From Candidatus Methylomirabilota bacterium (GTDB lineage Bacteria > Methylomirabilota > Methylomirabilia > Rokubacteriales > CSP1-6), in contig DASTYT010000051.1 in assembly GCA_035764725.1 (NCBI GenBank), forward strand, positions 4,603 through 68,602: a stretch of DNA of 64,000 nucleotides, read 5' to 3'. Positions 5,782 to 24,927 of the stretch are shown here, one piece after another (position 1 is the first letter of the stretch; the number at the start of each line of letters is the position of its first letter). Both the position numbers and the translations under genes were made by a program. The notes under the pieces were generated by a model, which saw only the letters and a program-made list of their open reading frames with translations, had not been told where the DNA came from and did no database searches.

Positions 5782-6717
5782 ATGCATCTCGTCACGTTCC
5801 GCAAGGGGCGCAGCCAGGGGCGCGTGGGTGCGATCTGGCACGAGGCTGTGATCGATCTGGCCGGGGTGGCCAAGGATCTCGCCGCCCAGCGCAACGAGCC
5901 AGCGCGCGGCCGGGGATTTCCGAAGACCATGCTCGAGCTGGTGGAGGGCGGCGAGACCGCGCTCGCTCGCGCGCGCGAGGCCTTCGAGGCGGGCCAGCGC
6001 CTGGTCGATGCGCAGGGCATCGACGATCTCGCCGCGCGGAAGCTCGCGTACCCCCTCGCCAAGGTGCGTCTCCTCGCGCCGATCATTCCGCCCCGGAACG
6101 TGTTCTGCCTCGGCCGTAACTACGCCGACCATGCCGCCGAGCGCGGCGCCGCCGTGCCCGAGCATCCGGTGTACTTCACCAAGCCGGCCGACTGCGTGAT
6201 CGGGACGGGCGAGCGCGTCACCCATCATGCCGTCACCAAGGAGCTGGACTACGAGGTCGAGCTGACCGCGGTGATCGGCACCGGCGGGCGCGACATCCCG
6301 CGGGGGAACGCGCTCCGCCACGTCTTCGGCTACACGGTGATCAACGACGTGACCGCGCGCGATCTCCAGAAGAAGCACGGCCAGTGGTTCAAGGGGAAGT
6401 CGCTCGACACCTTCTGCCCCATGGGCCCGGTGCTCGTCACCGCCGACGAGATCCCCGATCCGCAGTCCCTCGCGGTGTCGCTGCGGGTGAACGGGCAGGC
6501 GCGTCAGTCCAGCCACACCTCCAAGATGATCTTCCCGGTGGATCAGTGCATCGAGGTGCTCTCGCAGGGCTTTACCTTGGTGCCCGGCGATGTCATCGCC
6601 ACCGGCACCCCCGACGGCGTGGGCGCGGCCACCGGCAACTTCCTCAAGATCGGCGACCGCATGGAGGCGGAGGTCGAACGGATCGGCGTGCTCGCCAACC
6701 GGGTCGCCGCGCCCTAG
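5782..6717 (+). CDS. Fumarylacetoacetate hydrolase (FAH) family protein
   Basis: 311 aa. FAH-fold motifs FCLGRNYADHAAE and a metal-binding Glu/Asp region (ELDYEVELTAVIG). Confidence 0.75.
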   Translation: MHLVTFRKGRSQGRVGAIWHEAVIDLAGVAKDLAAQRNEPARGRGFPKTMLELVEGGETALARAREAFEAGQRLVDAQGIDDLAARKLAYPLAKVRLLAPIIPPRNVFCLGRNYADHAAERGAAVPEHPVYFTKPADCVIGTGERVTHHAVTKELDYEVELTAVIGTGGRDIPRGNALRHVFGYTVINDVTARDLQKKHGQWFKGKSLDTFCPMGPVLVTADEIPDPQSLAVSLRVNGQARQSSHTSKMIFPVDQCIEVLSQGFTLVPGDVIATGTPDGVGAATGNFLKIGDRMEAEVERIGVLANRVAAP

Positions 6718-6842
6718 CGTCGTCGGGCGGCCCCGCGGGCCCCTAGAAGGGTCCGTCGCCGTGTGGTAGCATCCCCGTCACATCAGCCCTCTTCCTTCTT
6801 CGTCGTTCTATCCGTCGTGTCGGAATCAACGGGGAGGCGGAC

Positions 6843-8924: not shown

Positions 8925-8938
8925 CGTCGCCCGCCCGG

Positions 8939-10279
8939 ATGCCGCCCCAGACCCGATACGCCAAGAGCGGTGACGTCAGCATTGCCTATCAGGTCGTCGG
9001 GGAGGGCCCGCGCGACCTGGTGGTGGTGCCGGGCTGGCTCTCGAACGTCGAGGTCTTCTGGGAAGAGCCCTCCGCGGTTCGGTTCTTCGAATCCCTCGCG
9101 CGGTTCTCCCGAGTGATTCTCTTCGACAAGCGCGGCACCGGTCTGTCCGATCGCGTGCCGGACATTCCGGGACTGGAGACCCGGATGGACGATGTCCGGG
9201 CCGTGATGGACGCAGTGGGTTCGGAGCGTGCCGCGCTCTTCGGCTACTCCGAGGGCGGTCCCATGTGCGTGCTCTTCGCCGCGACCTATCCGGACCGCGT
9301 GAGCGCCCTCATCACGCACGGCTCGTACGCGCGCCGGGTCCGATCGAGCGATCACCCGTGGATGCCGGTCCTGGAGGACTGGGAGCGGTTCATCGAGTCC
9401 ACCGTCAAGGGCTGGGGCGGCCCGGTGGGGCTCGCGGAGCGCGCGCCCAGCCGCATGCGTGACGAAGCCTTCGTGCAGTGGTGGTCGCGCTTCACCCGGA
9501 TGAGCGCGAGCCCCGCCTCGAGCGCGCAGGTGCTCCGGATGAACACGCAGATCGACGTCCGCCGCATCCTGTCGAGCGTCCGGGTGCCCACCCTGCTCCT
9601 CCACCCCACCGGCGATCGGGTGGTGCCCGTGGAGGCCAGCCGCTACATGGCCGAGCACATTCCCGGCGCGAAGCTCATCGAGCTGCCGGGGATCGACCAC
9701 CTGCCGTTCGCGGACAACGCCGAGCACGTCCTGCGGGAGATCCGAAGCTTCCTGGGCGAGCTCCCCACCGAGGCCGAGCCCGACCGGGTGCTCGCGACCG
9801 TGGTCTTCGCCGACATCGTGGGCTCGACGGAGCAGGCGGTGGCCCTGGGCGACCGCCGGTGGCGGGAGCTCCTCGGCGGCTTCCACGCGGCGGTCCGGCG
9901 CGAGGTGGGGCGCTTCCGGGGCCGCGAGATCGACTCCGCCGGCGACGGGGTCCTCGCCGCCTTCGACGGGCCCGCCCGCGCGGTGCGCGCAGCGTGCGCG
10001 GTGGGCGAGGCGGTGCGCCCGCTGGGCGTGACGGTGCGCGCCGGCGTGCACACCGGCGAGTGCGAGGTGCTTGGCAACAAGCTAGCCGGCATCGCCGTGC
10101 ACATCGGCGCGCGGGTCGCCTCGGTGGCAGGGCCCGACGAGGTCCTGGTGTCGAGCACTGTCCGCGACCTCGTCGCGGGCTCCGGCCTCGCCTTCGCCGA
10201 CCGGGGGCTGCACACGCTGAAGGGCGTGCCCGGCGACTGGCATCTCTTTGCCGTGGATCGGGGCGTGGCGCGCGTATGA
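8939..10279 (+). CDS. Alpha/beta-hydrolase domain fused to class III adenylate/guanylate cyclase domain (LipJ/Rv1900c-like architecture)
   Basis: 446 aa. N-terminal alpha/beta-hydrolase fold with GYSEGG nucleophile elbow. C-terminal cyclase homology domain (VVFADIVGSTEQ...HTGECEV...HIGARVA). Confidence 0.8.
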   Translation: MPPQTRYAKSGDVSIAYQVVGEGPRDLVVVPGWLSNVEVFWEEPSAVRFFESLARFSRVILFDKRGTGLSDRVPDIPGLETRMDDVRAVMDAVGSERAALFGYSEGGPMCVLFAATYPDRVSALITHGSYARRVRSSDHPWMPVLEDWERFIESTVKGWGGPVGLAERAPSRMRDEAFVQWWSRFTRMSASPASSAQVLRMNTQIDVRRILSSVRVPTLLLHPTGDRVVPVEASRYMAEHIPGAKLIELPGIDHLPFADNAEHVLREIRSFLGELPTEAEPDRVLATVVFADIVGSTEQAVALGDRRWRELLGGFHAAVRREVGRFRGREIDSAGDGVLAAFDGPARAVRAACAVGEAVRPLGVTVRAGVHTGECEVLGNKLAGIAVHIGARVASVAGPDEVLVSSTVRDLVAGSGLAFADRGLHTLKGVPGDWHLFAVDRGVARV

Positions 10280-11511
10280 GCTTCGTCACCCACGTCGAGT
10301 GCACCGTCTGCGGCAAGGCGCACGCGTCGACCCATCTCCTCACCATCTGCGAGGCCTGCGGCCAGATGCTGGCCGTGCGCTACGACCTCCCCGCCGTCGC
10401 GCGCGCCCTCACCAAGGACGCGCTGCGGTCGCGCCCCCCGGGCATGTATCGCTTCCGCGAGCTCTTGCCGCTGGGCGACGACGAGGCGCCGGTCACGCTG
10501 GGCGAGGGCGGCACGCCCGTGCTCGAGCTGCCGCGCCTGGCCGGCCATCTCGGGATGCGCCGGCTGTGGGCGAAGGACGAGGGACAGAATCCCACCGGCT
10601 CGTTCAAGGCCCGCGGGCTGGGCATGGCGATCACCCGCGCCCGCACGCTCGGCGTGAAGGGCCTCATGATCCCCTCCGCGGGCAATGCGGGCGGCGCCGC
10701 CGCGGTGTACGGCGCGCGCGCGGGCGTGCCCGTCGCGGTGGTGGTGCCGCGCGGCACGCCCGAAGCGGCGGTGGCCGAGGCCCTGATCGCGGGCGCCCAC
10801 GTGTTCACGGTGGAAGGCTCCATCGCGACCGCGGGCCGCCTCATCGCGCAAGTGGCCCCGCGCCTCGGCTGGTTCGACCTCGCCACGCTCAAGGAGCCCT
10901 ATCGCCTCGAGGGCAAGAAGACGATGGGCCTCGAGCTGGCCGAGCAGCTCGGCTGGGAGGCCCCCGATGTCCTCATGTATCCGACGGGCGGCGGCACCGG
11001 CCTCGTCGGGATCTGGAAGGCCTATGAGGAGCTGGCGGCGATGGGCTGGATCGGCTCCCCGCAGCCGCGCTTCTTCGCCGTGCAGGCCGAAGGCTGCGCG
11101 CCGGTGGTGAAGGCCTTCGAGGACAAGGCGGAGACCACGTCGATGTGGGAGAACCCCGTCACCCACGCGGCCGGGCTGCGGGTGCCCGGCCCCTTCGCCG
11201 GCCGCCAGATGCTGCGCATCCTGCGCGAGACCGGGGGCGGCGCGCTCGCGGTCAGCGAGGACGAGATCGTGGCGGCGCAGAAGCTCCTCGCGCGCGTCGA
11301 GGGCATCTGGACCGCGCCGGAGGCCGCCGCCGCGCTGGCGGCCCTGATGCGCTTGCGCGCGACCGGTGACGTCGCGCCCGGCGACCGCGTGGTCCTGGTC
11401 CTCACCGGCGCCGGCATCAAGTACGTCCCGCCGCCCCTCCCCGCGGCGATTCACCTCGAGGGTTCCCCCGACGAGGTGCTCGCGACCGTCCGCCGCGCCG
11501 TCGGCGCCTGA
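10276..11511 (+). CDS. thrC: Threonine synthase (PLP-dependent, with N-terminal Cys4 zinc ribbon)
   Basis: 411 aa, ATGA overlap with the upstream cyclase. PLP-lysine motif NPTGSFKARG. N-terminal CTVCGK...CEACGQ. Start located by residue counting. Confidence 0.85.
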   Translation: MSFVTHVECTVCGKAHASTHLLTICEACGQMLAVRYDLPAVARALTKDALRSRPPGMYRFRELLPLGDDEAPVTLGEGGTPVLELPRLAGHLGMRRLWAKDEGQNPTGSFKARGLGMAITRARTLGVKGLMIPSAGNAGGAAAVYGARAGVPVAVVVPRGTPEAAVAEALIAGAHVFTVEGSIATAGRLIAQVAPRLGWFDLATLKEPYRLEGKKTMGLELAEQLGWEAPDVLMYPTGGGTGLVGIWKAYEELAAMGWIGSPQPRFFAVQAEGCAPVVKAFEDKAETTSMWENPVTHAAGLRVPGPFAGRQMLRILRETGGGALAVSEDEIVAAQKLLARVEGIWTAPEAAAALAALMRLRATGDVAPGDRVVLVLTGAGIKYVPPPLPAAIHLEGSPDEVLATVRRAVGA

Positions 11512-11649: not shown

Positions 11650-12915
11650 ATGGGGAAGCTGACGCGACGGACATTCCTCAGGGCGAGCGGCGCGGGCGTG
11701 GTCGGCACGGTGATGGCCGCCGGGCTCGCCGGCTGCGCGTCCACGATGGGCGAGACACAGCCCACGGGCCGCCGCCGGGTCGTGGTGATCGGCGGGGGCT
11801 GGGGCGGCGCCACCGCCGCCAAGTACGTCCGGATGGGTGATCCCCGCATCGACGTGGTGCTCCTCGAGCCGAATCGTCAGTTCATCTCCTGCCCGTTCAG
11901 CAATCTCGTCCTGGCCGGCCTGCGCAACGTCGAGAGCCTGAGCTTCGGCTACGACGGGCTGCGCCGGCGCGGCGTGACGGTGCGCCACGAGGCGGCGCTG
12001 GCCATCGAGCCCGACACCAAGCGCGTGCGACTGGCGAGCGGCTATCTCGCCTATGACCGTCTCATCGTGTCACCCGGCGTCGACTTTCTCTGGGACCAGG
12101 TGGACGGGCTGCCCGCTGCGCGCGACACCGTCCTCCATGCCTGGAAGGCCGGTCCGCAGACGGTGGAGCTGGCGCGGCAGATCCAGTCCATGCCGGACAA
12201 CGGAGTGTTCATTTTGACGGTTCCGCCGGTGGCCTATCGCTGCCCGCCCGGCCCCTACGAGCGCATCTCGATGGTGGCGTGGTACCTCAAGGCGAACAAG
12301 CCGCGCGCCAAGGTCCTGGTGCTCGACGCCAATCCCAACATCGTCTCGAAGACCGCGCTGTTCCGCGAGGCGTGGAAGGCGTACCCCAACATCGAGTACC
12401 GCGCCACCAATCGGGTGATCGCCGTCGATCCGGGCGCGAGGGAAGTGCGGACGGAGTTCGACCGGATCAAGTACGACGTGCTGAACCTGATCCCGCCGCA
12501 GCGCGCCGGGCAGATCGTGGTGGACGCGAACCTCGTGGGCGCCGACAAGCGCTGGTGCGAGGTCAGCCACCTGACGTACGAGTCGGTGAAGGCGCCCGGC
12601 GTGCACGTGGTGGGGGACGCGACCACCGGCCTCCCGGTGCCGAAGTCGGGGAACGTGGCCAACAACATGGGGAAGATTGCCGCGATCGCCGCGGTGTCTC
12701 TCCTCAACGACAAGCCGGCGCCCTCGGTGGCACCGGGCAATACCTGCTACAGCTGGGTGAGCGATCGCGAGGCCATCGCGGTGGTCAATGCGTACAAGAT
12801 CGAGAACGGCAAGGTGGTTCAGATCGAGCAGCGGCTCACCCCGGCGCAGTCCCCCGCGGTGGCGGCGCGCGCGGTCGGCTGGACCCAAAGTATCTGGCAG
12901 GACGTGGTCGGCTAG
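11650..12915 (+). CDS. fccB: Flavocytochrome c sulfide dehydrogenase flavoprotein subunit (FccB/SoxF-like), Tat-exported
   Basis: 421 aa. Twin-arginine signal RRTFLRASGAGVVGTVMAAGLAGCAS. FAD motif RVVVIGGGWGGATAAKYV. A diheme cytochrome c follows. Could alternatively be another periplasmic FAD disulfide oxidoreductase. Confidence 0.7.
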   Translation: MGKLTRRTFLRASGAGVVGTVMAAGLAGCASTMGETQPTGRRRVVVIGGGWGGATAAKYVRMGDPRIDVVLLEPNRQFISCPFSNLVLAGLRNVESLSFGYDGLRRRGVTVRHEAALAIEPDTKRVRLASGYLAYDRLIVSPGVDFLWDQVDGLPAARDTVLHAWKAGPQTVELARQIQSMPDNGVFILTVPPVAYRCPPGPYERISMVAWYLKANKPRAKVLVLDANPNIVSKTALFREAWKAYPNIEYRATNRVIAVDPGAREVRTEFDRIKYDVLNLIPPQRAGQIVVDANLVGADKRWCEVSHLTYESVKAPGVHVVGDATTGLPVPKSGNVANNMGKIAAIAAVSLLNDKPAPSVAPGNTCYSWVSDREAIAVVNAYKIENGKVVQIEQRLTPAQSPAVAARAVGWTQSIWQDVVG

Positions 12916-12932
12916 GCGCCAGGGAGACCAGC

Positions 12933-13547
12933 ATGCCCAGAGTCCACATCGCCGTCGTCGGTGCCGCGCTGCTCGCCGCCGCGAGCGCGCCGGCGCCCGC
13001 TTCCGCGCAGGCCTCCGCGCCCATGCTCTACGAGACCACGACCGCGCGTGTGGTCACGTGCGCCGCCTGCCACGGCGTCAACGGCAACAGCCGGTCCGAC
13101 GCCATGCCCATCATCGCCGGGATGGACGCCGGCTACTTCAAGAAGCAGGTGCAGGCGTACGCCGCCAACGCCCGGCCGTCCCCCGAGATGGGGCCCTACG
13201 CGAAGCAGATCCTCGACATCGGCCTCGATGCGGTGGCGGGCCACTTCGCCGCGCAGCGCATGGAGCCGACGCCGCTCAAGGCCGACGCGGCGGCGGTGGC
13301 GCGGGGGCGCACCGCGTCGGCGCCCTGCGTGGCGTGCCACGGCGCCGACGGCAAGGGCGATTCCGCCAAGGGCACTCCGAGCCTCGCCGGCCAGCCGCCG
13401 GGCTATCTGCGGGATCAGATCGGTCTCTTCCGGCAGGATGCGCGCAACCCGGGCGACACGACGCTCGCCGCGATCAAGGCTCTGATGAAGACGCTGCCGG
13501 AGGCGCAGGACGCCGACCTGGCCGCGTACTACTCGAGCCTGCGCTAG
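12933..13547 (+). CDS. fccA: Diheme c-type cytochrome (FccA/c4-like), secreted
   Basis: 204 aa. Signal peptide. Two CxxCH motifs (CAACHG, CVACHG). Confidence 0.75.
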   Translation: MPRVHIAVVGAALLAAASAPAPASAQASAPMLYETTTARVVTCAACHGVNGNSRSDAMPIIAGMDAGYFKKQVQAYAANARPSPEMGPYAKQILDIGLDAVAGHFAAQRMEPTPLKADAAAVARGRTASAPCVACHGADGKGDSAKGTPSLAGQPPGYLRDQIGLFRQDARNPGDTTLAAIKALMKTLPEAQDADLAAYYSSLR

Positions 13548-13603
13548 CGAACCCCGCGTTCCCGGGTGATTCGTCGCCCGTTTGTCCTGGAGGGGCTCTC
13601 ACC

Positions 13604-14413
13604 GTGCCCGAATGGCTGCTGCTGCTCATCGCCGGCCTGGTGATCGGCGCCTACGGCACCATCATCGGGGCCGGGGGCGGCTTCATCCTGGTGCCGCTGC
13701 TCTTGATCTTCTATCCCAACGAGAGCTCCGAGTCGATCGCCAGCGTGTCGCTGGCGGTTGTGTTCTTCAACGCGCTCTCGGGCACGATCGCCTACGCCCG
13801 GCTCAAGCGCGTCGACTACGGCTCCGGCGTCCTGCTCGCCCTCGCCACCGTGCCCGGCGCCATTCTCGGCGCCCTCACGACCCCGCTGATCCCGCGCCGC
13901 CCCTTCGACCTCATCGTGGGCTGTCTCCTCGTCGCCCTGTCGATCTTTCTGGTCCTCCGCCCGCTCGCCGAGGCGCGTGAGTGGACCGGGCGCTTCCGCA
14001 TGAGCCGCCGCATGATCGATCCCGATGGCACCGTGCAGTCGTGGAGCTATAACCCCGTGCTCGGTGTGGCGGTGAGCGTGGTGATCGGCTTCGTGTCGAG
14101 TCTGCTCGGCATCGGGGGCGGCTTCATCCACGTCCCCGTGATGGTGAATTTCCTCAACTTTCCCGTGCACGTCGCCTCCGCGACCTCCCACTTCACCTTG
14201 ACGGTGATGACGGCGGTGGGCTCGGTGGTGCACCTCCTCACCGGCACCCTCGTGGGCGCGGCGCCGCGGGTCGTGCCGCTCTCCCTCGGCGTGGTGGTCG
14301 GCGCGCAGGTCGGGGCCCGCCTCGCCCAGCGCATGCGCGGCGTCTGGATCATCCGCGCCCTCGTCCTCGCGCTGGCTTTCGTGGGGGCCCGCCTCATCTT
14401 CAAAGCCCTGTAG
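13604..14413 (+). CDS. TauE/SafE family sulfite/sulfonate exporter (DUF81)
   Basis: 269 aa, GTG start behind a GGAGGGG RBS. Duplicated 4-TM halves each carrying a GxGGGF motif (GAGGGFILVPLL and GIGGGFIHVPVM). Confidence 0.75.
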   Translation: MPEWLLLLIAGLVIGAYGTIIGAGGGFILVPLLLIFYPNESSESIASVSLAVVFFNALSGTIAYARLKRVDYGSGVLLALATVPGAILGALTTPLIPRRPFDLIVGCLLVALSIFLVLRPLAEAREWTGRFRMSRRMIDPDGTVQSWSYNPVLGVAVSVVIGFVSSLLGIGGGFIHVPVMVNFLNFPVHVASATSHFTLTVMTAVGSVVHLLTGTLVGAAPRVVPLSLGVVVGAQVGARLAQRMRGVWIIRALVLALAFVGARLIFKAL

Positions 14414-14446
14414 CCGCGCGGCGAACGGAGTAATATCAGTCTCCGC

Positions 14447-15994
14447 ATGCGCTACGGATTCGTCCTCGACCAGCGGAAGTGCATCGGGTGTCACGCCTGC
14501 ACGGTGGCTTGCAAGGAAGAGAACGGCGTCCCCCTCGGCGTCAACCGCACCTGGGTGAAGTACATCGAGAAGGGCACCTTTCCCGACACGCGGCGGTACT
14601 TCGCCGTGCTCCGCTGCAACCATTGTGACGATGCTCCGTGCGTGACGATCTGTCCCACCGTCGCCCTCTATCGCCGGCCCGACGGCATCGTAGACTTCGA
14701 CGGCGCGCGTTGCATCGGCTGCAAATCGTGCATGCAGGCTTGCCCCTACGATGCCCTCTACATCGATCCCGAGACCCAGACCGCGGCCAAGTGTCACTAC
14801 TGCGCCCATCGCGTCGAGGTGGGGCTCGAGCCCGCGTGCGCGATCGTGTGCCCGGTACAGGCCATCGTGGCGGGCGACCTCGACGATCCCGGCACTCCCA
14901 TTGCCCGCCTGGTCGCCTCGCAGCAGGTGCAGGTGCGGAAGCCGGAGCAGGGGACGCAGCCGAAGGTGTTCTACCTCGGCGCCGAGATGTCCGCGCTGGC
15001 GCCCGAGATGCAGCGGCGAGACGGGCAGTACGTGTTCTCCCAGGCTTCCACGATCCCGACGCCCGGCCAGCGCAACCACGCGGTGGCGCCCGCGCCGCCC
15101 GTGCCGGACGACCCCCTCGATCTCCGGGCACTCGCCCGCACCGTCTACGACGTCGCGCACCCCGCGCGGCCCTGGGGCGGCAAGGTGTCCTCCTATCTTT
15201 GGACCAAGTCGGTGTCCGCGGGCGCGATGCTCGTGGCGGGGGTGAGCATGCTGTCCGGACTGGCGTCGGGGAACGTCCTCGCCGGCCGCATCGCGCCCGT
15301 GATCGCGCTCGTGTTCCTCGTGCTGACGACCGCGCTCCTCATTGCGGATCTCAAGCGGCCGGAGCGCTTTCTCTATCTCCTCTTCAAGCCCAACTGGCGC
15401 TCGTGGCTCGTCTGGGGCGGCTGGATCCTGATCGCCTACGGCGGCGGCGTCACGCTCTGGCTGCTCGCCGCGCTCGCCGGGCGCCCGCAGGCCCTGGTGT
15501 GGCTGGCGGTGCCCGTCACCCTGCTCGCCGCCTCGACCGCCGGCTACAGCGCGTTCCTGTTCGGCCAGGCCGAGGGCCGCGATTTCTGGCAGAGCCCACT
15601 GACCCTGCCGCATCTCCTCGTTGCCGCGCTCGCCGCGGGCAGCGCGAGCCTGCTGCTCCCCGCGCTTGCGCTCGGCGGGGGCCCGGGCGCGCCGTGGGGG
15701 CTGCGCCTGGTCCTGCTCGGCTCGCTCATCGCGCTCGCCGTGGTCCTCGAAGCCGAGATCCTCACCCCCCATCCCACCCTCGACGCCGAGCGCGCCGCGC
15801 GGTTCCTCACCCGCGGGCCCCTCGCCGCCCCGCTCTGGGCCGGCGTGGGGGGGGCGGGGATCGTGCTCCCCGTCGCCCTCCTCTTCACGCCGTGGCACGC
15901 CGCGTGGGGGGTGGCGGCCGTGCTGTCCCTCGCCGGGCTCTGGCTCTACGAGGACCTCTGGATACGCGCGGGCCAATCCGTGCCGCTGAGCTGA
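14447..15994 (+). CDS. Fused 4x[4Fe-4S] ferredoxin subunit + NrfD/PsrC-type integral membrane anchor of a Mo-bisPGD oxidoreductase (SoeB-SoeC-like fusion)
   Basis: 515 aa. N-terminal ~200 aa has four Cys clusters (CIGCHACTVAC; CNHCDDAPCVTICP; CIGCKSCMQACP; CHYCAHRV...CAIVCP). C-terminal ~300 aa has 8+ predicted TM helices of the NrfD type. No signal peptide. Confidence 0.75.
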   Translation: MRYGFVLDQRKCIGCHACTVACKEENGVPLGVNRTWVKYIEKGTFPDTRRYFAVLRCNHCDDAPCVTICPTVALYRRPDGIVDFDGARCIGCKSCMQACPYDALYIDPETQTAAKCHYCAHRVEVGLEPACAIVCPVQAIVAGDLDDPGTPIARLVASQQVQVRKPEQGTQPKVFYLGAEMSALAPEMQRRDGQYVFSQASTIPTPGQRNHAVAPAPPVPDDPLDLRALARTVYDVAHPARPWGGKVSSYLWTKSVSAGAMLVAGVSMLSGLASGNVLAGRIAPVIALVFLVLTTALLIADLKRPERFLYLLFKPNWRSWLVWGGWILIAYGGGVTLWLLAALAGRPQALVWLAVPVTLLAASTAGYSAFLFGQAEGRDFWQSPLTLPHLLVAALAAGSASLLLPALALGGGPGAPWGLRLVLLGSLIALAVVLEAEILTPHPTLDAERAARFLTRGPLAAPLWAGVGGAGIVLPVALLFTPWHAAWGVAAVLSLAGLWLYEDLWIRAGQSVPLS

Positions 15995-16003
15995 GGCCGA
16001 CCC

Positions 16004-18832
16004 ATGACCGACCGCGTGACCGAGCCGCTGCATCCCGTCGCCCGCGATCTCCAAGCTCCCGCGGAGGGGCTGCATCGCTATCCGCCCGCTGCGCTCTGGG
16101 ACAACTGGGAGGAGTTCGACCCGCGCGCGTGGCCGCGGCGGGTGAAGCGGCAGTACTCGCTCATCCCGACGATCTGCTTCAATTGCGAGGCGGCGTGCGG
16201 GCTGCTCGCCTACGTGGACCAGCGCACGCTCAAGATCCAGAAGTTCGAGGGGAACCCCGCGCATCCCGGCAGCCGCGGCCGCAACTGCGCCAAGGGCCCG
16301 GCCACCCTCAACCAGGTGACGGATCCGGAGCGCATCCTCTATCCCCTCCGCCGGGCGGGCGCGCGCGGCGAGGGAACGTGGGAGCGCGTCACCTGGGACG
16401 AGGCTCTCGATGACATCGCGAGCCGCATCCGCAAGGCGCTGGTCGAGAAGCGTCCGACCGAGGTGATGTATCACCTGGGGCGCCCCGGCCACGAGCTCGT
16501 CTATCTGCAGCGGATCTTCCACGCGTGGGGTATCGACGGCCACAACAGCCACACCAATGTCTGCTCGGCGTCGGCGCGCGCAGGCTATGCCTTCTGGCAC
16601 GGGCTCGACCGGCCCTCGCCGGATCACGCCAAGGCGCGCGTGATCCTGCTGCTCTCCTCCCATCTCGAGGCCGGCCACTACTTCAATCCCCATGCGCAGC
16701 GCATCACCGAGGGCAAGCAGGCGGGCGCCAAGGTGTGCGTCGTGGACACGCGCCTGAGCAACACCGCCTCGATGGCGGACTGGTGGCTCTCCCCGTGGCC
16801 GGGCACCGAGGCCGCTCTGCTCCTCGCCATGTGCCACGTGCTCCTGCGCGAGGGCACGTGGGACCGCGACTTCGTCCGCCGCTGGGTGAACTGGGGGGAG
16901 TACCTGCGCGAGGAGCGTCCGGGCACGCCGGTGACGTTCGAGGCCTTCGAGACCGCACTGGTCGATCTCTACGCCGACTACACGCCGGAGTTTGCGGAGC
17001 GCGAGTCGGGCGTGCCCGCCGCGCGCATCGAGGAGATCGCGCGGGAGATCGGGCGCGCCGGCGGCGCGCTGTCCACGCACGTGTGGCGCAATGCCGCGGC
17101 GGGCAACCTGTGGGGCTGGGAGGTCGCGCGCGCCCTCGAGCTCCTGGTCGTCCTCGCTGGCGCGGTGGCCACGCCCGGCGGCACCGCGCCGTCGGGCTTC
17201 CACAAGGCGGTGCCCGCGCCGCCCATGATGCCGCCGCCCGGGAAGGTGTGGAGCGAGCTGCTCATGCCGCGCGAGTACCCGCTCGCCTTCTTCGAGATGA
17301 GCTTCCTCCTGCCCCATCTGCTCCGAGAGAATCGGGGCAAGCTCGCGATGTACTTCACGCGCGTGTACAACCCGGTGTGGACCAACCCCGATGGGATGTC
17401 GTGGATCGAGATGCTCACCGACGAGGCCAAGATCGAGCGCCACGCCTGCCTCACGCCGATCTGGAGCGAGACCGCGCACTTCGCGGACTACGTCCTCCCG
17501 ATGGGCCACGCCTCCGAGCGCCACGATCTCATGAGTCAGGAGACGCACGCCGCGCGCTGGATCGGCTTCCGCCAGCCCGTGCTGCGGGTGGCGCTCGAGA
17601 AGCAGGGGAAGCGCTTCGACTGGACGTGGCAGGCGCACGAGGCGGCCGGGCTCGGCCAGGTGTGGGAGGAGGACGAGTTCTGGATCGAGCTGTCCTGGCG
17701 GATCGATCCCGACGGCGCCCTCGGGATCCGCAAGTACTTCGAGTCCCCGTACCGCCCGGGGCAGAAGCTCACCATCGAGGAGTTCTACCGCTGGATCTTC
17801 GAGCACAGCGTGCCCGGCCTGCCCGCCGCCGCGCAGAAGGAAGGCCTGACCCCGCTCGCCTACATGCGGAAGTACGGCGCCTTCCTCGTGGAGGGCGGCG
17901 TGTACGCGTCGCACGAGAAGCCGCTGTCCGCCGCGGAGCGCGAGGGGGCGACGGTGGATCCCGTCACCAGCGTGGTGGCCAAGGGTGGCGCGGCCGTCGG
18001 CGTCGAGGTGGACGGGCGCGCCGCCGCGGGCTTTCCCACGCCCTCGCGCAAGCTCGAGTTCTACTCGAAGACGCTGAAAGACTGGAAGTGGCCCGAGCAC
18101 GCGGTGCCGACGTACGCGCGGAGCCATGTCCACTGGTCGCAGATCGACCGCGCTAAGGGCGAGATGCTGCTGCTGCCGACCTTCCGGCTGCCCACGCTCG
18201 TCCACTCGCGCTCGGGCAATGCGAAGTGGCTGTACGAGATCTCCCACAGTAACCCCCTGTGGCTGCACCCGGAGGACGCCGCGCGCCTCGGGGTGAAGAC
18301 GGGCGAGCTCCTCCGGATCGAGACGGAGATCGGCCACTTCGTGGACCGCGTGTGGGTGACGGAGTCCATCCGGCCCGGCGTGATCGCGTGCTCGCATCAC
18401 ATCGGGCGGTGGCGGCTCCACGAGTCGACCGGCGGCGAGCGCTGGTCGACCGCGCTGGTGGATCTCACGCGTGAGGCGCCGGGGCATTGGCGCATGCGCC
18501 ACGTCCACGGCATCCGTCCGTTCGCCAGCGCGGATCCCGACTCCGAGCGCGTGTGGTGGGAGGACGCGGGCGTGCACCAGAATTTGACGTTCCCCGTGCA
18601 TCCCGACCCGGTGAGCGGCCAGCACTGCTGGCATCAGAAGGTCCGCGCGGTGCGTCCGGGGCCGGACGACCGCTACGGCGACGTCTTCGTGGACACCAAC
18701 CGCTCGCAGGAGGTCTTCCGCCACTGGCTCGCGATGACGCGGCCGGCGCCGGGCCCCGGCGGCCTCCGCCGCCCGCTCTGGCTGCCCCGCGCCTTCAAGC
18801 CCGACGCGTCCGCGTATAAGCTGGAGGGGTGA
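16004..18832 (+). CDS. Molybdopterin (Mo-bisPGD) oxidoreductase catalytic subunit lacking a Tat signal, candidate sulfite dehydrogenase SoeA-like
   Basis: 942 aa. N-terminal FeS0 Cys motif CFNCEAACGL...C. No RRxFLK motif. Follows the FeS/NrfD fusion with a 10-nt gap. The Soe assignment is inferred from architecture and neighbours. Confidence 0.7.
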   Translation: MTDRVTEPLHPVARDLQAPAEGLHRYPPAALWDNWEEFDPRAWPRRVKRQYSLIPTICFNCEAACGLLAYVDQRTLKIQKFEGNPAHPGSRGRNCAKGPATLNQVTDPERILYPLRRAGARGEGTWERVTWDEALDDIASRIRKALVEKRPTEVMYHLGRPGHELVYLQRIFHAWGIDGHNSHTNVCSASARAGYAFWHGLDRPSPDHAKARVILLLSSHLEAGHYFNPHAQRITEGKQAGAKVCVVDTRLSNTASMADWWLSPWPGTEAALLLAMCHVLLREGTWDRDFVRRWVNWGEYLREERPGTPVTFEAFETALVDLYADYTPEFAERESGVPAARIEEIAREIGRAGGALSTHVWRNAAAGNLWGWEVARALELLVVLAGAVATPGGTAPSGFHKAVPAPPMMPPPGKVWSELLMPREYPLAFFEMSFLLPHLLRENRGKLAMYFTRVYNPVWTNPDGMSWIEMLTDEAKIERHACLTPIWSETAHFADYVLPMGHASERHDLMSQETHAARWIGFRQPVLRVALEKQGKRFDWTWQAHEAAGLGQVWEEDEFWIELSWRIDPDGALGIRKYFESPYRPGQKLTIEEFYRWIFEHSVPGLPAAAQKEGLTPLAYMRKYGAFLVEGGVYASHEKPLSAAEREGATVDPVTSVVAKGGAAVGVEVDGRAAAGFPTPSRKLEFYSKTLKDWKWPEHAVPTYARSHVHWSQIDRAKGEMLLLPTFRLPTLVHSRSGNAKWLYEISHSNPLWLHPEDAARLGVKTGELLRIETEIGHFVDRVWVTESIRPGVIACSHHIGRWRLHESTGGERWSTALVDLTREAPGHWRMRHVHGIRPFASADPDSERVWWEDAGVHQNLTFPVHPDPVSGQHCWHQKVRAVRPGPDDRYGDVFVDTNRSQEVFRHWLAMTRPAPGPGGLRRPLWLPRAFKPDASAYKLEG

Positions 18833-19422
18833 TGGCTCGCCTCCGCGTCCTCCGCCGCCGTCTCGCGTGGCGGTTCCTGCTCCTGGTCGCGCTTGTCGCG
18901 GCCGTCCTCGTCGGCGCGCCCGGCGCCGGGGACTCCGCCGAGCCGTCGGCCGAGGTGTTGTCCGCCCTCGAGTTGGCGCCGCTCCCGCGCGCGGCCGCGC
19001 CCGCCTTCACCCTCGCCGATCTCGACGGCCGCGCGCAGTCGCTCGCGAGCCTGCGAGGTCAGACGGTGTTGATCTACTTCTGGGCGACCTGGTGCCCCTA
19101 CTGCCAGAAGGAGCTCCCCACCACCGTGCAGGAGCTGGCGCGCCGCTATCGCGACCGGCGGCTCGTCGTGCTCGCGGTCAACCTGGAGGAAGGGCGGGAC
19201 AAGGTGCGTGCGTGGGTGAAGAAGCACGGCATCTCCGTCCCGGTGCTCCTGGACGGCAACGGTGAGGTCAGCGGCGACTACCGCGTGACCGCCACGCCCA
19301 CCGCGGTGCTCGTGGACCGCGATGGCCGCACCGTCGCCCGCGCGGTGGGCACCCGTTCCTGGACGTCAGACCGTGCCCGCCCCCTGTGGGACGCCCTGCT
19401 CCCGCCCGCGCAGACTCGCTAG
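18832..19422 (+). CDS. TlpA/ResA-like periplasmic thiol:disulfide oxidoreductase (thioredoxin fold)
   Basis: ~196 aa. N-terminal membrane anchor and WCPYC active site. Overlaps the Mo-subunit stop (GTGATGG; a GTG at 18829 is an alternative start). Confidence 0.75.
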   Translation: MARLRVLRRRLAWRFLLLVALVAAVLVGAPGAGDSAEPSAEVLSALELAPLPRAAAPAFTLADLDGRAQSLASLRGQTVLIYFWATWCPYCQKELPTTVQELARRYRDRRLVVLAVNLEEGRDKVRAWVKKHGISVPVLLDGNGEVSGDYRVTATPTAVLVDRDGRTVARAVGTRSWTSDRARPLWDALLPPAQTR

Positions 19423-19439
19423 GAGTGCGGCGTGCGAGA

Positions 19440-20273
19440 CTAGTCGATGCCGAAGTCGAACATGCGGCCGCTCGCAGTCGCACCGCTCAGGACGACGAAG
19501 CCATACTCGCCGGGCGCGAGCGGGCTTGCGGGCGTGATGCGGTAAAAGCCATTGGCTTCGCGCTCGCTCTTCACCGCGATCCGGTCCTCATTGCGCACGC
19601 CGTGGCGGATCGTGCCGCCGCCCGGGAAGAAGCCGCCGCTGCCCATCTTGAGGTTCCGGTCATTCTTGGTGTCGCCGGGCTTCAGCTTGACGAGCAGGGC
19701 CTCCGTCGGCGCGTAGTAGCTGTAGAACTGCGGCTGCTTCTCCGTGATGCGGGCCTCGGCCTTGCGCCCGCCCAGCACCACCTCGCTCTTCTGCGAGAAG
19801 AAGGCCACGTTGGTCTCGATCTCGATCACCTGGGGCTGCAGCTCCACGTATTTCGAGCCGTTGAGATAGTAGATCGAGTCGCGGGGCAGATTGGGCGCGG
19901 CCCCGCCGGCGCTGGAGCGCGCGGCGGATGACACCGCCGCCGGCGGCGCGCTCTGCGGGGTGCCCGCCGGCGAAGTCGGCGCGGCCGGTGCCGGGGCCGC
20001 CGCGGTGGCGCCCCCCGCCTTGGGCGCGCTCACCATGGCCTCGATGATCTTGTCGGAAACGCCCGCCTTCTTCAGATTCAGGAGCGCGTTGGTGCTCGTG
20101 TCGAAGTTGGCCGGGCCGGAGCGCACGCGCGCGAGCACGACCGCTTCGCTGAGCCCGCCCTTCACCATGGAGATGATCGACTCGTTGGTGAGCGTCTCCT
20201 GGGCGGCGGCGGTCAGGGGCATCACCGCGATCACGAGCAGGACGGCGACGACGAGGCGAGCGAGACTCCTCAT
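19440..20273 (-). CDS. Secreted hypothetical protein (signal peptide, Ala/Pro-rich linker)
   Basis: 277 aa from MRSLARLVVAVLLVIAVMPLTAAAQE. AGGAGGG RBS 5 nt upstream. No recognisable catalytic motif. Convergent with tlpA, 17-nt gap. Confidence 0.55.
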   Translation of the reverse strand: MRSLARLVVAVLLVIAVMPLTAAAQETLTNESIISMVKGGLSEAVVLARVRSGPANFDTSTNALLNLKKAGVSDKIIEAMVSAPKAGGATAAAPAPAAPTSPAGTPQSAPPAAVSSAARSSAGGAAPNLPRDSIYYLNGSKYVELQPQVIEIETNVAFFSQKSEVVLGGRKAEARITEKQPQFYSYYAPTEALLVKLKPGDTKNDRNLKMGSGGFFPGGGTIRHGVRNEDRIAVKSEREANGFYRITPASPLAPGEYGFVVLSGATASGRMFDFGID

Positions 20274-20316
20274 GGGATTCCCTCCTGCGGCATCAAAGCA
20301 TTCGCCCCCGCGACAA

Positions 20317-20354
20317 GTCAAGGCGCAGCCCCGGGGCAGGCACGTCGCCTTGAC
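20317..20354. promoter_or_regulatory. Nested palindrome GTCAAGGCG-N20-CGCCTTGAC with central GCCCCGGGGC: candidate operator in the divergent promoter region
   Basis: Perfect 9-bp inverted repeats with a perfect 10-bp palindrome in the spacer. The downstream arm overlaps a TTGACC -35-like hexamer. Lies in the 200-bp gap between the minus-strand secreted-protein gene and aconitase. Confidence 0.35.
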
Positions 20355-20400
20355 CTCTCCGGGGCCGACATGTTAGCGTAACGGCGAGATTTTTGACCGG

Positions 20401-20431
20401 TCGCCTCCCATCCGAAACGGGCGGGAGGCGA
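20401..20431 (+). promoter_or_regulatory. 5'UTR stem-loop of the aconitase mRNA (TCGCCTCCC-N13-GGGAGGCGA)
   Basis: 9-bp perfect stem, 13-nt loop, ~45 nt upstream of the aconitase ATG. The stem contains a GGGAGG sequence identical to the real RBS further downstream. Confidence 0.35.
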
Positions 20432-20472
20432 TACGTCTGTGTAGCCCCGGAAGCGAGCGAGGGAGGCCCACC

Positions 20473-22719
20473 ATGGCGGCAGACCAGATCAAGCGACTCT
20501 ACGAATCCATGCCCGCCAAGCTGGACCGGGCTCGCACGCGCTTCGGACGCGCGCTCACCCTCGCCGAGAAGATCCTCGTCGCGCACGCCGACGATTTCGA
20601 CAAGCAGGAGTGGAGCCGCGGCAAGGCCCAGCTCCGCCTGCGTGTGGACCGCGTGTCGCTACAGGACGCCACGGGCCAGATGGCGCTGCTCCAGTTCATG
20701 CAGGCGGGGAAGAAGCAGGTGGCGGTGCCGTCCACCGTGCACTGCGACCACCTCATCCGCGCGCAGACCGGGGCGCGCGAGGACATGGAGCGGGCGATCT
20801 CGGAGAACCGCGAGGTGTACGAGTTTCTCCATTCCGCCTCCAGGAAGTACGGGATTGGGTTCTGGAAGCCGGGCGCGGGGATCATCCACCAGGTGGTTCT
20901 GGAGAACTACGCGTTCCCCGGCGGGCTCATGATCGGCGCCGACTCGCACACGCCCAACGCGGGCGGCCTCGGCATGGCCGCGATCGGCGTGGGCGGGGCG
21001 GACTGCGGTGAGGCGATGGCGGGGCTCGCGTGGGAGGTGCTCGATCCCAAGCTCGTGGGCGTGCGGCTCACCGGGAAGTTCTCGGGCTGGACCTCCGCGA
21101 AGGACGTCATCACCTACCTCTGCGGGCTCCTCACCGTGAAGGGCGGCACCAACAAGATCATCGAGTACTTCGGTCCCGGCGCGGAGTCGATCAGCGCCAC
21201 TGGCAAGGGCACCATCTGCAACATGGGCGCGGAGCTCGGCGCCACCACCTCGCTCTTCCACTTCGACGACCGCATGGCCGCCTATCTCCGCGCGACGGAC
21301 CGGGCCGACCAGGCCGCGCTCGCGGAGGCGCACCGGGCGCATCTCGTCGCCGATCCCGAGGTGCTCGCCGACCCGAAGAAGTACTACGACGAGGTCGTCG
21401 AGGTGAACCTCTCCGAGCTCGAGCCTCACATCGTCGGCCCGCACTCGCCCGACCGCGCGCGGCCCGTCAGCAAGCTCGCCGCCGAGGTGAAGAAGGAGGG
21501 CTGGCCCGCCCAGATCAAGGCCGCCCTCATCGGCTCCTGCACCAACTCCTCCTACGAGGACATGCGACGCGCCGCCCACATCGCCACCCAGGCTCTCAAG
21601 GCCGGGCTCAAGGCGAAGACCCCCTTCCTCGTGACGCCGGGGTCGGAGCGCATCTACCAGACCATCAAGCGCGACGGCATCATGGATACCTTCCAGCAGA
21701 TCGGGGGCACCGTGCTCGCCAACGCGTGCGGCCCCTGCATCGGCCAGTGGAAGCGGTCGGACGTGAGCGCGACCGAGACCAACACCATCGTGTCGTCGTT
21801 CAACCGCAACTTCCCCGGGCGCAACGACGGCAGCGCGAGCACGCTGTCGTTCCTCACCAGCCCGGAGATCGTGACCGCGCTGGCCTTCGCGGGGTCGCTC
21901 GAGTTCGATCCCGTCAACGGCACCATCCCCGGTCCCGACGGGCGGGCGTTCCGCTTCACCGCGCCCGAGGGCGAGGAGCTGCCCGCCCGCGGCTTCGCCA
22001 AAGGCGAGGAGGGCTTCGAGGCGCCGGCGGCGAGCGGCGATGCGGTGCAGGTCGTGATCCCACCGGGGAGCGAGCGGCTCCAGCTCCTCCAGCCCTTCCC
22101 GCGGTGGGACGGCAAGGACTTCACCGAGCTCCCGATCCTCGTCAAGACCAAGGGCAAGACGACCACCGACCACATCTCGCCCGCCGGCGCGTGGCTCCGC
22201 TTCCGCGGGCACCTCGACAAGATCAGCGACAACATGTTCCTGGGCGCGGTCAATGCCTTCACCGGCGAAGCGGGGAAGGGCGTGAACCCCCTCACCGGCG
22301 AGGCGGGCAAGACCTTCACCCAGAACGCGCGCGATCTCAAGGCGCGCGGGATCTCCTGGATGGTGATCGGAGACGAGAACTACGGCGAGGGGTCGAGCCG
22401 CGAGCACGCGGCGATGTCGCCCCGCTACCTCGGCGCCAAGGTCGTCATCGTCCGGAGCTTCGCGCGCATCCACGAGACCAATCTCAAGAAGCAGGGCATC
22501 CTGCCCCTGACCTTCAGCGACCCCAAGGACTACGACCTCTTCGACCGGGCCGATCGCGTGAGCGTGCGCGGGCTCGCCGCGCTGATGCCGGGCCAGCCGG
22601 TGGAGGTGGTCATTCACAAGGCGGGTGGCGAGACCGTCACCATCAAGTGCAACCACACCTTGACCGACGAGCAGATCGGCTGGTTCAAGGCAGGCTCGGC
22701 GCTCAACGCGCTCACCTAA
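20473..22719 (+). CDS. Aconitate hydratase (mitochondrial-type, ~750-aa class)
   Basis: 748 aa. Fe-S ligand motifs [11 protein letters not shown] and [10 protein letters not shown]. The length is mAcn-like rather than AcnA/AcnB (~870-890 aa). GGAGG RBS. Confidence 0.85.
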
Positions 22720-22735
22720 CTTCGAGGAGACCTCA

Positions 22736-24927
<2,192 letters not shown>

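Follow-up and report, generated by a model that had tools for sequence, protein, structure and literature searches.

The stretch of DNA analysed here (the window, 64,000 nucleotides in full) carries a gene in which a four-cluster ferredoxin (B) and an NrfD-type membrane anchor (C) are encoded as one polypeptide, BC, and it is virtually certain that BC is a true and evolutionarily stable fusion of the two subunits. BC and the neighbouring catalytic subunit (A) make up a two-gene complex iron-sulfur molybdoenzyme module. Judged from its sequence, the BC-A complex very probably faces the cytoplasm, as has been proposed for SoeABC, and the favoured reading of the whole, which has a fair likelihood of being right, is that of a fused, cytoplasm-facing, SoeABC/PSRLC3-like sulfite:quinone oxidoreductase. 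The fusion itself is not new, and the BC-A of the window is an ordinary member of an already described type, to which it is likened by gene architecture; what is added here is that both subunits lack a Tat signal and that the Lys/Arg bias of the anchor is inverted when set against E. coli NrfD and unfused, Tat-dependent B-C-A relatives. The cytoplasm-facing complex with its inverted anchor, which the initial annotation of this DNA missed, is more informative than the fusion.

Architecture of the BC-A module

The fused BC gene (14447..15994, plus strand) begins with ATG and encodes a protein of 515 aa and 55.0 kDa that combines a ferredoxin with a putative quinone-binding anchor. The B domain (residues 1-186; 14447..15004, plus strand) is a four-cluster [4Fe-4S] ferredoxin for electron transfer, which lacks a signal peptide and opens directly at its first Cys motif, and its 16 cysteines are arranged as C12xxC15xxC18xxxC22, C57xxC60x4C65xxxC69, C89xxC92xxC95xxxC99 and C116xxC119x11C131xxxC135. 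These four motifs (residues 12-22, 57-69, 89-99 and 116-135) are invariant across 34 homologs. Pfam places Fer4_11 (PF13247) on BC residues 51-144 (E 2.5e-23), Thermus thermophilus PsrB (2vpw_B) matches residues 2-181 (E 1.8e-51), and the domain can be aligned over its whole length with stand-alone B subunits, and likewise with E. coli NrfC once the Tat signal of NrfC is removed. The B domain is followed by a Pro/Ala-rich linker (residues ~187-240; 15005..15166, plus strand) of variable length and weak conservation, which scores 0.3-0.5 among 49 diverse fused homologs, with 37-73% gaps at residues 201-220, and has low pLDDT in the AlphaFold2 model. The ends of stand-alone B subunits and the starts of stand-alone C subunits both map inside this linker, which may thus correspond to the old B C-terminus joined to the old C N-terminus.

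The C domain (residues 241-515; 15167..15991, plus strand) is an NrfD/PsrC-type anchor of eight transmembrane helices with an inverted charge bias. NrfD (PF03916) is recognised by Pfam on BC residues 242-499 (E 2.4e-15; 57.4 bits vs a cut-off of 25.8), and AlphaFold2, run on the whole of BC with an input alignment of 34 sequences of 68-90% identity, predicts eight confident transmembrane helices (pLDDT 70-97) at residues 244-270, 277-301, 320-343, 347-371, 386-408, 414-439, 460-479 and 484-511. The Fe-S domain is unreliable in the same model (pLDDT 20-30), and the B-C docking and the path of the linker are unreadable in it. Foldseek matched the C domain best to ActC (8k9e_C, E 2e-5), followed by T. 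thermophilus PsrC (2vpw_C, E 2.4e-5, TM 0.69); a single-sequence search of the C half against the PDB gave no match even at E 10. Among the invariant columns, DLKRPERF, FGQAEGRDFWQSP and a C-terminal WxRAGQ form conserved polar loops on the Fe-S side. The ORF, Pfam, AlphaFold2 and Foldseek therefore agree with the initial annotation, which had read one 515-aa polypeptide with four complete Cys motifs (16 located cysteines, with a Fer4_11 match) and an NrfD-like C-terminal half of about eight helices (PF03916 above cut-off and a PsrC/ActC fold); the high GC3 that it reported for the ORF was likewise recovered, with in-frame values of 0.80-1.0 in each 30-codon block, junction included.

The A gene (16004..18832, plus strand) encodes a Mo/W-bisPGD catalytic subunit of 942 aa and 106.7 kDa that lacks a Tat signal. 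Its start at 16004 is the first start codon past the BC stop, which lies only 9 bp away, and the gene order is thus BC-A, with BC upstream of A as had been proposed. Pfam identifies the domains Molybdop_Fe4S4, Molybdopterin and Molydop_binding; the FS0 motif reads C58xxC61xxxC65...C95, and Cys187 is aligned with Cys173, the Mo ligand of PsrA. T. thermophilus PsrA is the best solved-structure match of A (E 7e-39). None of the NCBIfam equivalog cut-offs is reached by A, the best being PhsA with 197.8 bits vs 694, and a SoeA model is absent among its NCBIfam matches. Existing names are generic as well, IMG giving homologs of A only a COG-type name, and JGI and NCBI giving the fused protein only a generic annotation.

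Gene neighbourhood and candidate substrates

The cluster in the window runs in the order PALP enzyme, fccB, fccA, tauE, BC, A and tlpA. The product of fccB (11650..12915, plus strand) is a flavoprotein that resembles the FccB/SoxF sulfide dehydrogenases and bears a clear Tat signal (MGKLTRRTFLRASG...), while fccA (12933..13547, plus strand) encodes an FccA-like dihaem cytochrome c with two CxxCH motifs and a signal peptide. Located 33 bp upstream of BC, tauE (13604..14413, plus strand) has a GTG start and a GGAGGGG ribosome-binding site, and its product belongs to the TauE/SafE family of anion (sulfite) exporters (Pfam TauE, E 7e-44). On the other side, tlpA (18832..19422, plus strand) encodes a TlpA/ResA-like membrane-anchored thioredoxin with a WCPYC motif (AhpC-TSA/Redoxin, E 1e-25); the A stop and the tlpA start overlap (TGATG), which makes co-translation of tlpA with A probable, and a TlpA-like gene is also found 3' of A in 6 related loci. 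Five further ORFs, at 12961-13485 (+), 12912-13340 (-), 19386-19931 (+), 19891-20376 (+) and 20393-20932 (+), have no Pfam match and were not accepted as genes, and the translations of 12961-13485 and 19386-19931 have an Arg-rich junk composition.

Among 84 related loci, sulfur genes lie near BC-A in 30, mostly in Methylomirabilota, and in the other 54 none is recognised in the flanking sequence available; BC and A are the only genes whose linkage is kept in all of them. A persulfide dioxygenase-rhodanese occurs in 16 of the 84 loci, distributed over Methylomirabilota, Chloroflexota, Actinomycetota and Binatia, and the other neighbours include TauE (~15 loci, where it adjoins BC), YeeE-like Sulf_transp (11), FccAB (11-12), SoxY (7) and TusA (6). 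In Rhodococcus jostii the locus reads DsrE-TusA-BC-A-Mrp, amid MBL-fold hydrolases and ArsR/SmtB regulators, and a CsoR/CstR-family repressor lies directly upstream in Thermomicrobium roseum and its relatives. These recurrent neighbours probably point to sulfur oxidation. Gene context and host lifestyle make it likely that BC-A is a sulfur-compound dehydrogenase, and put sulfite as its specific substrate at a little under an even chance.

In the favoured reading as a sulfite:quinone oxidoreductase, A would take electrons from a cytoplasmic reduced sulfur compound, most likely sulfite, which might be supplied by persulfide dioxygenase, reverse Dsr or organosulfur breakdown. The electrons would pass from FS0 through the four [4Fe-4S] clusters to menaquinone, and TauE would offer an alternative outlet for sulfite. 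If true, this would be a widespread route by which the electrons of cytoplasmic sulfite reach the quinone pool in aerobic soil bacteria and haloarchaea, and one that detoxifies what persulfide dioxygenase and the breakdown of organosulfur compounds produce. A more far-reaching suggestion, which is tentative and on balance doubtful, is that BC-A forms a distinct, horizontally mobile, cytoplasm-turned clade that supplies the as yet unassigned cytoplasmic sulfite (or protein-persulfide) oxidase of SQR/persulfide-dioxygenase sulfide detoxification in the abundant soil phyla Methylomirabilota, Acidobacteriota, Chloroflexota and Binatia, as well as in actinomycetes and haloarchaea; the B-C fusion would then be an adaptation that tethers the ferredoxin co-translationally, with no need for Tat export or a TorD-type chaperone. 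Culturable hosts such as Rhodococcus jostii RHA1 (BC-A genes RHA1_RS43840/43835 on pRHL3) and T. roseum (TRD_RS12035/12030) make the module open to experiment.

A cytoplasm-facing enzyme might instead act on sulfane sulfur, either by reducing polysulfide, persulfide or thiosulfate (Psr/Phs chemistry inside the cell) or by oxidising persulfide or thiosulfonate bound to TusA/DsrE and handing the electrons to quinone. Among solved or curated proteins, A and B are indeed nearest to T. thermophilus PsrA/PsrB and to the models for PhsA and TtrB, and the fused type was annotated as polysulfide reductase by Wright et al. 2014 (PMC3906813); however, the scores against the Psr/Phs/Ttr models are far under the cut-offs. 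DsrE and TusA share the R. jostii operon, TusA is near BC-A in the 6 loci counted above, and rhodanese domains are frequent nearby; the Rhodococcus neighbours suit protein-bound sulfane or thiosulfonate as well as sulfite. On the other hand, the recurrent persulfide dioxygenase and TauE suggest that sulfite needs disposal, and the known hosts are chiefly aerobes (T. roseum, Rhodococcus and haloarchaea), in which quinol-driven polysulfide reduction on the cytoplasmic face would presumably waste energy. Sulfane sulfur as the substrate, instead of sulfite, is therefore considered unlikely.

Less probable again is a quinone-linked molybdoenzyme that faces the cytoplasm but acts on a substrate without sulfur, such as an organic compound or one of the oxyanions arsenate, selenate, chlorate and nitrate; the sulfur neighbours would then be coincidental or lineage-specific. 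The restriction of universal linkage to BC and A and the 54 loci with no recognised sulfur gene would suit such an enzyme, as would the failure of A to fit any curated equivalog and the presence of CsoR-like and ArsR/SmtB regulators, which sense metals or metalloids in other systems. Nevertheless, persulfide dioxygenase-rhodanese, TauE, YeeE-like proteins, SoxY and TusA keep company with BC-A repeatedly over several phyla, whereas no arsenic, selenium or nitrogen genes are among the recurrent neighbours of the 84 loci.

Membrane orientation, conservation and origin of the fusion

A Tat motif is absent from both A and BC, the two ORFs starting at the first possible start codon, and the Tat signal of FccB serves as an internal positive control for Tat recognition in the window. 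No Tat motif precedes the first Cys motif in any of 49 diverse fused proteins, and the few RR strings 5' of A in other loci are Arg-rich read-through. Lys and Arg residues, counted on loops delimited by the helix cores of the AlphaFold2 model, are concentrated on the Fe-S side of the anchor, with 10 vs 2 on the opposite loops in the BC of the window, 9 vs 3 in T. roseum and 10 vs 1 in R. jostii; the fused family averages 10.3 vs 1.4, and the bias is seen in 49/49. The opposite bias is found in Azoarcus (2 vs 10), Sulfurovum (4 vs 15) and E. coli NrfD (5 vs 12). The missing Tat signals together with the inverted positive-inside bias thus argue for placing the Fe-S domain and A on the cytoplasmic face. 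A previous study described NrfD-family anchors as usually carrying their Fe-S partner on the periplasmic side and SoeABC as facing the cytoplasm with an inverted anchor (PMC8076601). The usual arrangement would favour an ordinary periplasm-facing Psr/Nrf-type module in which B is simply fused to C, but this is highly improbable given the Tat-less state of A, BC and the 49 homologs, the reversal of charge relative to E. coli NrfD and Tat-dependent relatives, and the near lack of TorD-like chaperone genes (1 of 84 fused-type loci).

In a cytoplasm-facing BC-A complex, the N-terminal ferredoxin would be kept inside while the eight helices are inserted co-translationally, leaving both termini inside, and the predicted quinone pocket would adjoin the Fe-S domain close to the cytoplasmic surface. 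A periplasm-facing, Tat-exported enzyme would be difficult to construct as a BC fusion, and the Tat-less state and inverted bias of all 49 fused proteins would follow from this difficulty. As a naturally single-chain B-C unit, BC also lends itself to the study of how NrfD-type anchors can function in either membrane orientation.

The fusion is widely conserved. The best-matching protein clusters (n=120, 67-98% identity) are nearly all ~515 aa long and all contain Fer4 and NrfD; the fusion is uninterrupted in >120 protein clusters, and dozens of cluster representatives at 50% identity are full-length fusions of 490-591 aa. By tblastn against the best 80 species genomes of at least 596 relatives, one segment spans residues 1-515 in ~77 of the 80, the alignment in the other three being broken by contig ends, and A lies directly downstream of BC in ~70 of the 80 loci. 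Fusions range over Methylomirabilota, Binatia, Chloroflexota, Acidobacteriota, Actinomycetota and haloarchaea, with one homolog in Heimdallarchaeota, and RefSeq-annotated examples are present in T. roseum, R. jostii RHA1 and Natrinema halophilum. The search for the same fusion in orthologs, which the initial annotation had suggested, thus bore it out. Its statement that the characterised Psr, Soe, Nrf and Dms systems keep B and C as separate genes also stands, but the rarity that it implied does not, since the fusion is already described in the literature (Wright et al. 2014, PMC3906813) and is present in ~77/80 species genomes. As a finding from a genome scan, it amounts to a correct domain call on a known architecture and not to a discovery.

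Unfused relatives with the gene order B, C, A suggest how the fusion may have originated. In Azoarcus sp. KH32C and Sulfurovum mangrovi, B and C are separated by gaps of 10 nt and 1 nt, respectively, A has a Tat signal, and TorD chaperone genes are present. The stop codon of B might have been lost where B and C lay 1-10 nt apart, and the old termini of the two subunits would then have turned into the floppy Pro/Ala-rich linker. That the fusion is instead an assembly or sequencing artefact of this contig, with a lost stop or a frameshift, has a negligible probability even though indels do occur in high-GC metagenome assemblies and a frameshift interrupts Sulfurovum A in its database record, because orthologs share the unbroken frame, both across independent assemblies and in the complete genomes that cultured members of two domains have yielded, and GC by codon position is continuous over the junction, where the initial annotation had likewise seen neither stop nor frameshift.

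Comparison with known systems

The closest counterpart is the PSRLC3 or fused psrBC-psrA type, which resembles the module of the window in its single BC gene upstream of a Tat-less A and in its predicted cytoplasmic location. Wright et al. 2014 (PMC3906813) described the psrBC fusion, the psrBC-A order and the Tat-less PsrA in Marine Group A fosmid FPPP_13C3, Caldilinea aerophila and Haladaptatus paucihalophilus, and orthologs of the window genes share broad groups with those homologs, namely Chloroflexota and haloarchaea. The PSRLC3 fusion of green sulfur bacteria goes back to Frigaard & Bryant 2008, as cited in PMC3906813, and this fused PSRLC3 was inferred to be a sulfite oxidase (PMC9324843; PMC6338057). 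Green sulfur bacteria with PSRLC3 include Chlorobium luteolum, Prosthecochloris aestuarii and C. chlorochromatii. Unlike PSRLC3 and Marine Group A, the window belongs to a Methylomirabilota (Rokubacteria)-like soil-type bacterium, and its cluster has fccAB and tauE, not dsr genes. The literature on DsrOP homologs of cable bacteria, on Sulfobacillus SoeABC and on Rhodococcus desulfurization has no bearing on the fusion.

SoeABC of Allochromatium vinosum, Aquifex aeolicus and Ruegeria pomeroyi likewise combines a Mo-bisPGD subunit, a four-cluster ferredoxin and an NrfD-type anchor, and it carries its peripheral subunits on the cytoplasmic (N) side of an anchor thought to be inverted, which is also the side predicted for the window from its sequence. 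SoeA (Alvin_2491, UniProt D3RNN8, in A. vinosum), for which Dahl et al. in 2013 are said to have given ~109 kDa, is similar in size to the A of the window (106.7 kDa). However, SoeABC is encoded by three genes in the order A-B-C, whereas the window has two in the order BC-A. Candidates for SoeA on plasmids of Agrobacterium, Ralstonia, Sulfuricella and Tritonibacter (PLSDB) proved to be other molybdoenzymes.

Azoarcus sp. KH32C (pAZKH) and Sulfurovum mangrovi (plasmid) resemble the window in gene order and have homologous A, B and C, their A being 33-38% identical to that of the window over >90% of its length, but they differ in their separate B and C, the Tat signal on A, the TorD-family chaperone and a charge bias of the periplasm-facing kind. 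T. thermophilus PsrABC (PDB 2VPW-2VPZ) shares the Cys ligand to Mo and an eight-helix anchor that lacks haem; in contrast to the window, it has three separate subunits, its PsrA is Tat-exported and ~180 residues shorter than the A of the window, and the complex faces the periplasm. The anchor bias of the window is opposite to that of the periplasm-facing anchors of E. coli NrfD, Azoarcus and Sulfurovum, a count that did not include Thermus PsrC. More generally, PsrABC and PhsABC have a Tat-exported A with a periplasmic active site, whereas the A of the window is Tat-less. As well, ActB of alternative complex III (ACIII) is a natural fusion in the same modular superfamily, but there a cofactor-less A-like domain is fused to a B ferredoxin, not B to C, and ACIII faces the periplasm and has cytochrome subunits.

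The fused gene, its partner and its distribution

The BC gene (14447-15994, + strand; ATG start, 515 codons) encodes an Fe-S subunit (B) and an NrfD-type anchor (C) in one frame. The B part occupies the N-terminal 186 residues, with 16 cysteines arranged in four classical [4Fe-4S] motifs (12-22, 57-69, 89-99 and 116-135); it matches Pfam Fer4_11 (E 2.5e-23), and PsrB of Thermus thermophilus polysulfide reductase (2vpw_B) aligns with the whole domain (E 1.8e-51). Pfam NrfD covers residues 242-499 at 57.4 bits (cut-off 25.8), and an AlphaFold2 model, built on an alignment of 34 homologs, contains eight confident transmembrane helices in residues 244-511, for which Foldseek retrieved ActC of alternative complex III and PsrC (2vpw_C, E 2.4e-5, TM 0.69). 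The Pro/Ala-rich linker (~187-240) shows the lowest conservation and greatest length variation in the family, and GC3 in the BC frame is 0.80-1.0, unbroken across the junction. The Mo/W-bisPGD catalytic subunit A (16004-18832, + strand, 942 aa) starts 9 bp 3' of BC and carries the FS0 cysteine motif, while its Cys187 aligns with the PsrA Mo ligand Cys173. Thus, the ORF, four Cys motifs, eight-helix NrfD domain and BC-A order described in the initial annotation were all confirmed. An antisense ORF (13544-18724, - strand, 1726 aa) covering tauE, BC and most of A was rejected as a gene, being a shadow ORF typical of ~70% GC DNA with very high GC3.

The BC fusion is genuine and conserved across homologs. 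In a 5.8-billion-protein collection, the best 120 clusters (67-98% identity) are nearly all ~515 aa, and every one contains both domains; searching the 50%-identity representatives exhaustively with HMMER added dozens of full-length fusions of 490-591 aa, down to ~38% identity, including one from Heimdallarchaeota. When GTDB was scanned with one genome for each species, at least 596 relatives came up; among the best 80 of these, residues 1-515 lie in one unbroken tblastn segment with B and C in frame, save three contig-truncated cases, and A is directly downstream in about 70. Among the matches listed, the nearest hosts are Methylomirabilota/Rokubacteria (83-91% identity, a closeness that puts the window's own organism in this group), and further hosts include Binatia, Acidobacteriota, Dormibacterota, Actinomycetota, Desulfobacterota-like MAGs and Chloroflexota (Thermomicrobia, Ktedonobacteria, Limnocylindria). 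RefSeq annotates a single CDS in the finished genomes of Thermomicrobium roseum DSM 5159, Rhodococcus jostii RHA1 (pRHL3) and Natrinema halophilum. An assembly artefact was therefore rejected, since the fusion is uninterrupted in independent genomes and in finished genomes of cultured organisms. Across phyla, identity is 58-91% for A versus 47-83% for fused BC (related loci L001-L080), a pattern which, together with unrelated neighbourhoods and, in cultured hosts, a plasmid or megaplasmid location, suggests frequent horizontal transfer of BC-A.

Membrane orientation and origin of the fusion

No twin-arginine signal was found on A or BC, both of which start at the first start codon past the upstream stop, and in 49 diverse fused proteins the sequence ahead of the first cysteine motif contains no Tat motif. 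RR strings occasionally seen upstream of A in other loci were rejected as Tat signals, being Arg-rich read-through. As positive controls, the Tat signals of E. coli NrfC and of the FccB-like gene 2.8 kb upstream of BC (a textbook example, MGKLTRRTFLRASG...) were recognised. Lys and Arg were then counted on the Fe-S-side and opposite loops, with helix cores taken from the model. The counts were 10 versus 2 for the window protein, 9 versus 3 for T. roseum and 10 versus 1 for R. jostii, with a mean of 10.3 versus 1.4 and a bias in all 49 family members, whereas the unfused anchors of Azoarcus sp. KH32C (2 versus 10), Sulfurovum mangrovi (4 versus 15) and E. coli NrfD (5 versus 12) are biased the other way. 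The A subunits of Azoarcus (TRRTFLK) and Sulfurovum (SRRSFLKG, in a frameshifted gene) bear clear Tat signals, and each operon also has a gene for a TorD-family chaperone; of 84 fused-type loci, a single one, in a Chloroflexota MAG (L031), has a TorD-like gene, directly 3' of A (10640-11203). Judged from these sequence features, Tat-less A and BC, inverted Lys/Arg bias and rare TorD, the fused clade is predicted to be a topologically inverted, cytoplasm-facing form of the module. The initial annotation had the architecture right and did not note this orientation, its most informative feature.

Azoarcus and Sulfurovum, whose A subunits are more distant relatives, both have the order B-C-A, with B and C separated by 10 nt in Azoarcus (A, 33% identity) and 1 nt in Sulfurovum (A, 38% identity), and in alignments their B C-termini and C N-termini fall within the window protein's linker. 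The fusion would most simply have arisen in such an operon when the B gene lost its stop codon, which would also explain the BC-A order. A chain of an N-terminal cofactor-loaded ferredoxin and eight helices would be simple to build with the ferredoxin left in the cytoplasm and difficult with a ferredoxin that Tat must export, and this difference could plausibly underlie the association of fusion with inverted topology. The Sulfurovum A gene (plasmid NZ_CP087125.1, locus L085, ~5826-9052) is frameshifted as deposited: one frame carries the Tat signal and two further frames carry the body. The PLSDB gene table has no entry for this gene, which represents a pseudogene or else an error of assembly.

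Gene context and likely function

In the window, all on the + strand, BC-A follows a PLP-dependent PALP gene of cysteine synthase/cystathionine beta-synthase type (~10490-11511), an fccB-like flavoprotein (11650-12915; Tat signal, lipobox-like LAGC), an fccA-like dihaem cytochrome c (12933-13547; CAACH, CVACH, signal peptide) and tauE/safE (13604-14413). The fccB-fccA genes form a flavocytochrome-c-type sulfide dehydrogenase pair; fccA was found by frame analysis, hidden within a longer listed ORF (12279..13547). In 13 Methylomirabilota/Binatia loci, a PALP gene of this type accompanies both fccB and BC-A. Downstream, a TlpA/ResA-like thioredoxin (18829-19422, ATG 18832; WCPYC, N-terminal membrane anchor) overlaps the A stop (TGATG, preceded by GGAGGGG) and is probably translationally coupled to A; such a gene lies 3' of A in six related loci. 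This coupling would pair a periplasmic thiol-disulfide oxidoreductase with a putatively cytoplasm-facing molybdoenzyme. Farther out are an ORF (8939-10279, +) with an alpha/beta-hydrolase domain and, after it, a weak adenylate/guanylate cyclase match, overlapped by ORFs in other frames, and three TCA-cycle genes in a row (20473-24927, +): aconitase (20473-22719), isocitrate/isopropylmalate dehydrogenase (22736-23998) and malate/lactate dehydrogenase (23950-24927).

Within the available flanks of 84 loci, constant linkage is limited to BC and A, and sulfur-oxidation or persulfide-detoxification genes occur near BC-A in 30: persulfide dioxygenase-rhodanese fusions (16; Methylomirabilota, Chloroflexota, Actinomycetota, Binatia), TauE (~15), YeeE-like Sulf_transp (11), FccAB (11-12), SoxY (7) and TusA (6). 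The R. jostii RHA1 operon (L082, pRHL3, record 215276-231975) reads DsrE-TusA-BC-A-Mrp/NBP35 in a plasmid-borne sulfur island flanked by three MBL-fold hydrolases, two ArsR/SmtB regulators, two DUF202 genes, a thioredoxin and an MFS transporter. The Mrp/NBP35 Fe-S carrier gene is also 3' of A in Natrinema halophilum (L084). T. roseum, like three related loci, has a CsoR/CstR-family repressor gene directly upstream.

For A, no curated equivalog was reached (top NCBIfam match PhsA, 198 bits where the cut-off is 694), the top PDB match, PsrA (E 7e-39), covers mainly the N-terminal half (residues 53-412), and public names are generic only, so gene context was the main guide. Cytoplasmic sulfite is the product of persulfide dioxygenase, TauE belongs to a sulfite exporter family, and the cultured hosts are aerobes; for such organisms, a dehydrogenase that delivers electrons to the quinone pool is a more sensible enzyme than a reductase that consumes quinol. 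These neighbours and hosts favour, tentatively, a SoeABC/PSRLC3-like sulfite:quinone oxidoreductase. The main rival, that BC-A handles sulfane sulfur or thiosulfate, appears unlikely, and a non-sulfur substrate is more doubtful still.

Relation to known systems

NrfD family reviews do not mention fusions (PMC8076601, PMC6303296), and no paper was found in which a fused member had been characterised biochemically. Wright et al. (2014) described a Marine Group A fosmid with a psrBC fusion upstream of psrA, whose product lacks a Tat signal, and found the fusion also in Marine Group II archaea, Haladaptatus paucihalophilus and Caldilinea aerophila; as they cite, it was already known in green sulfur bacteria (Frigaard and Bryant, 2008), namely in P. 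aestuarii, in C. chlorochromatii and in C. luteolum (PMC3906813). The green sulfur bacterial version, PSRLC3, has been interpreted as an enzyme that oxidises sulfite (PMC6338057, PMC9324843). The contrast drawn in the initial annotation with characterised Psr, Soe, Nrf and Dms systems was justified, but the architecture is not new, and not rare either, given that report (PMC3906813) and the wide ortholog spread. The present analysis adds how widely the fusion is distributed, an association of BC-A with persulfide dioxygenase and TauE that extends across phyla, the identity of culturable hosts in which BC-A could be studied, and, by comparison with unfused Tat-dependent relatives, a tie between fusion and inverted topology. 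BC-A belongs to a previously noticed class of complex iron-sulfur molybdoenzymes predicted to face the cytoplasm, and a cytoplasm-facing inverted topology like that predicted for the fused clade has also been proposed for SoeABC (PMC8076601).
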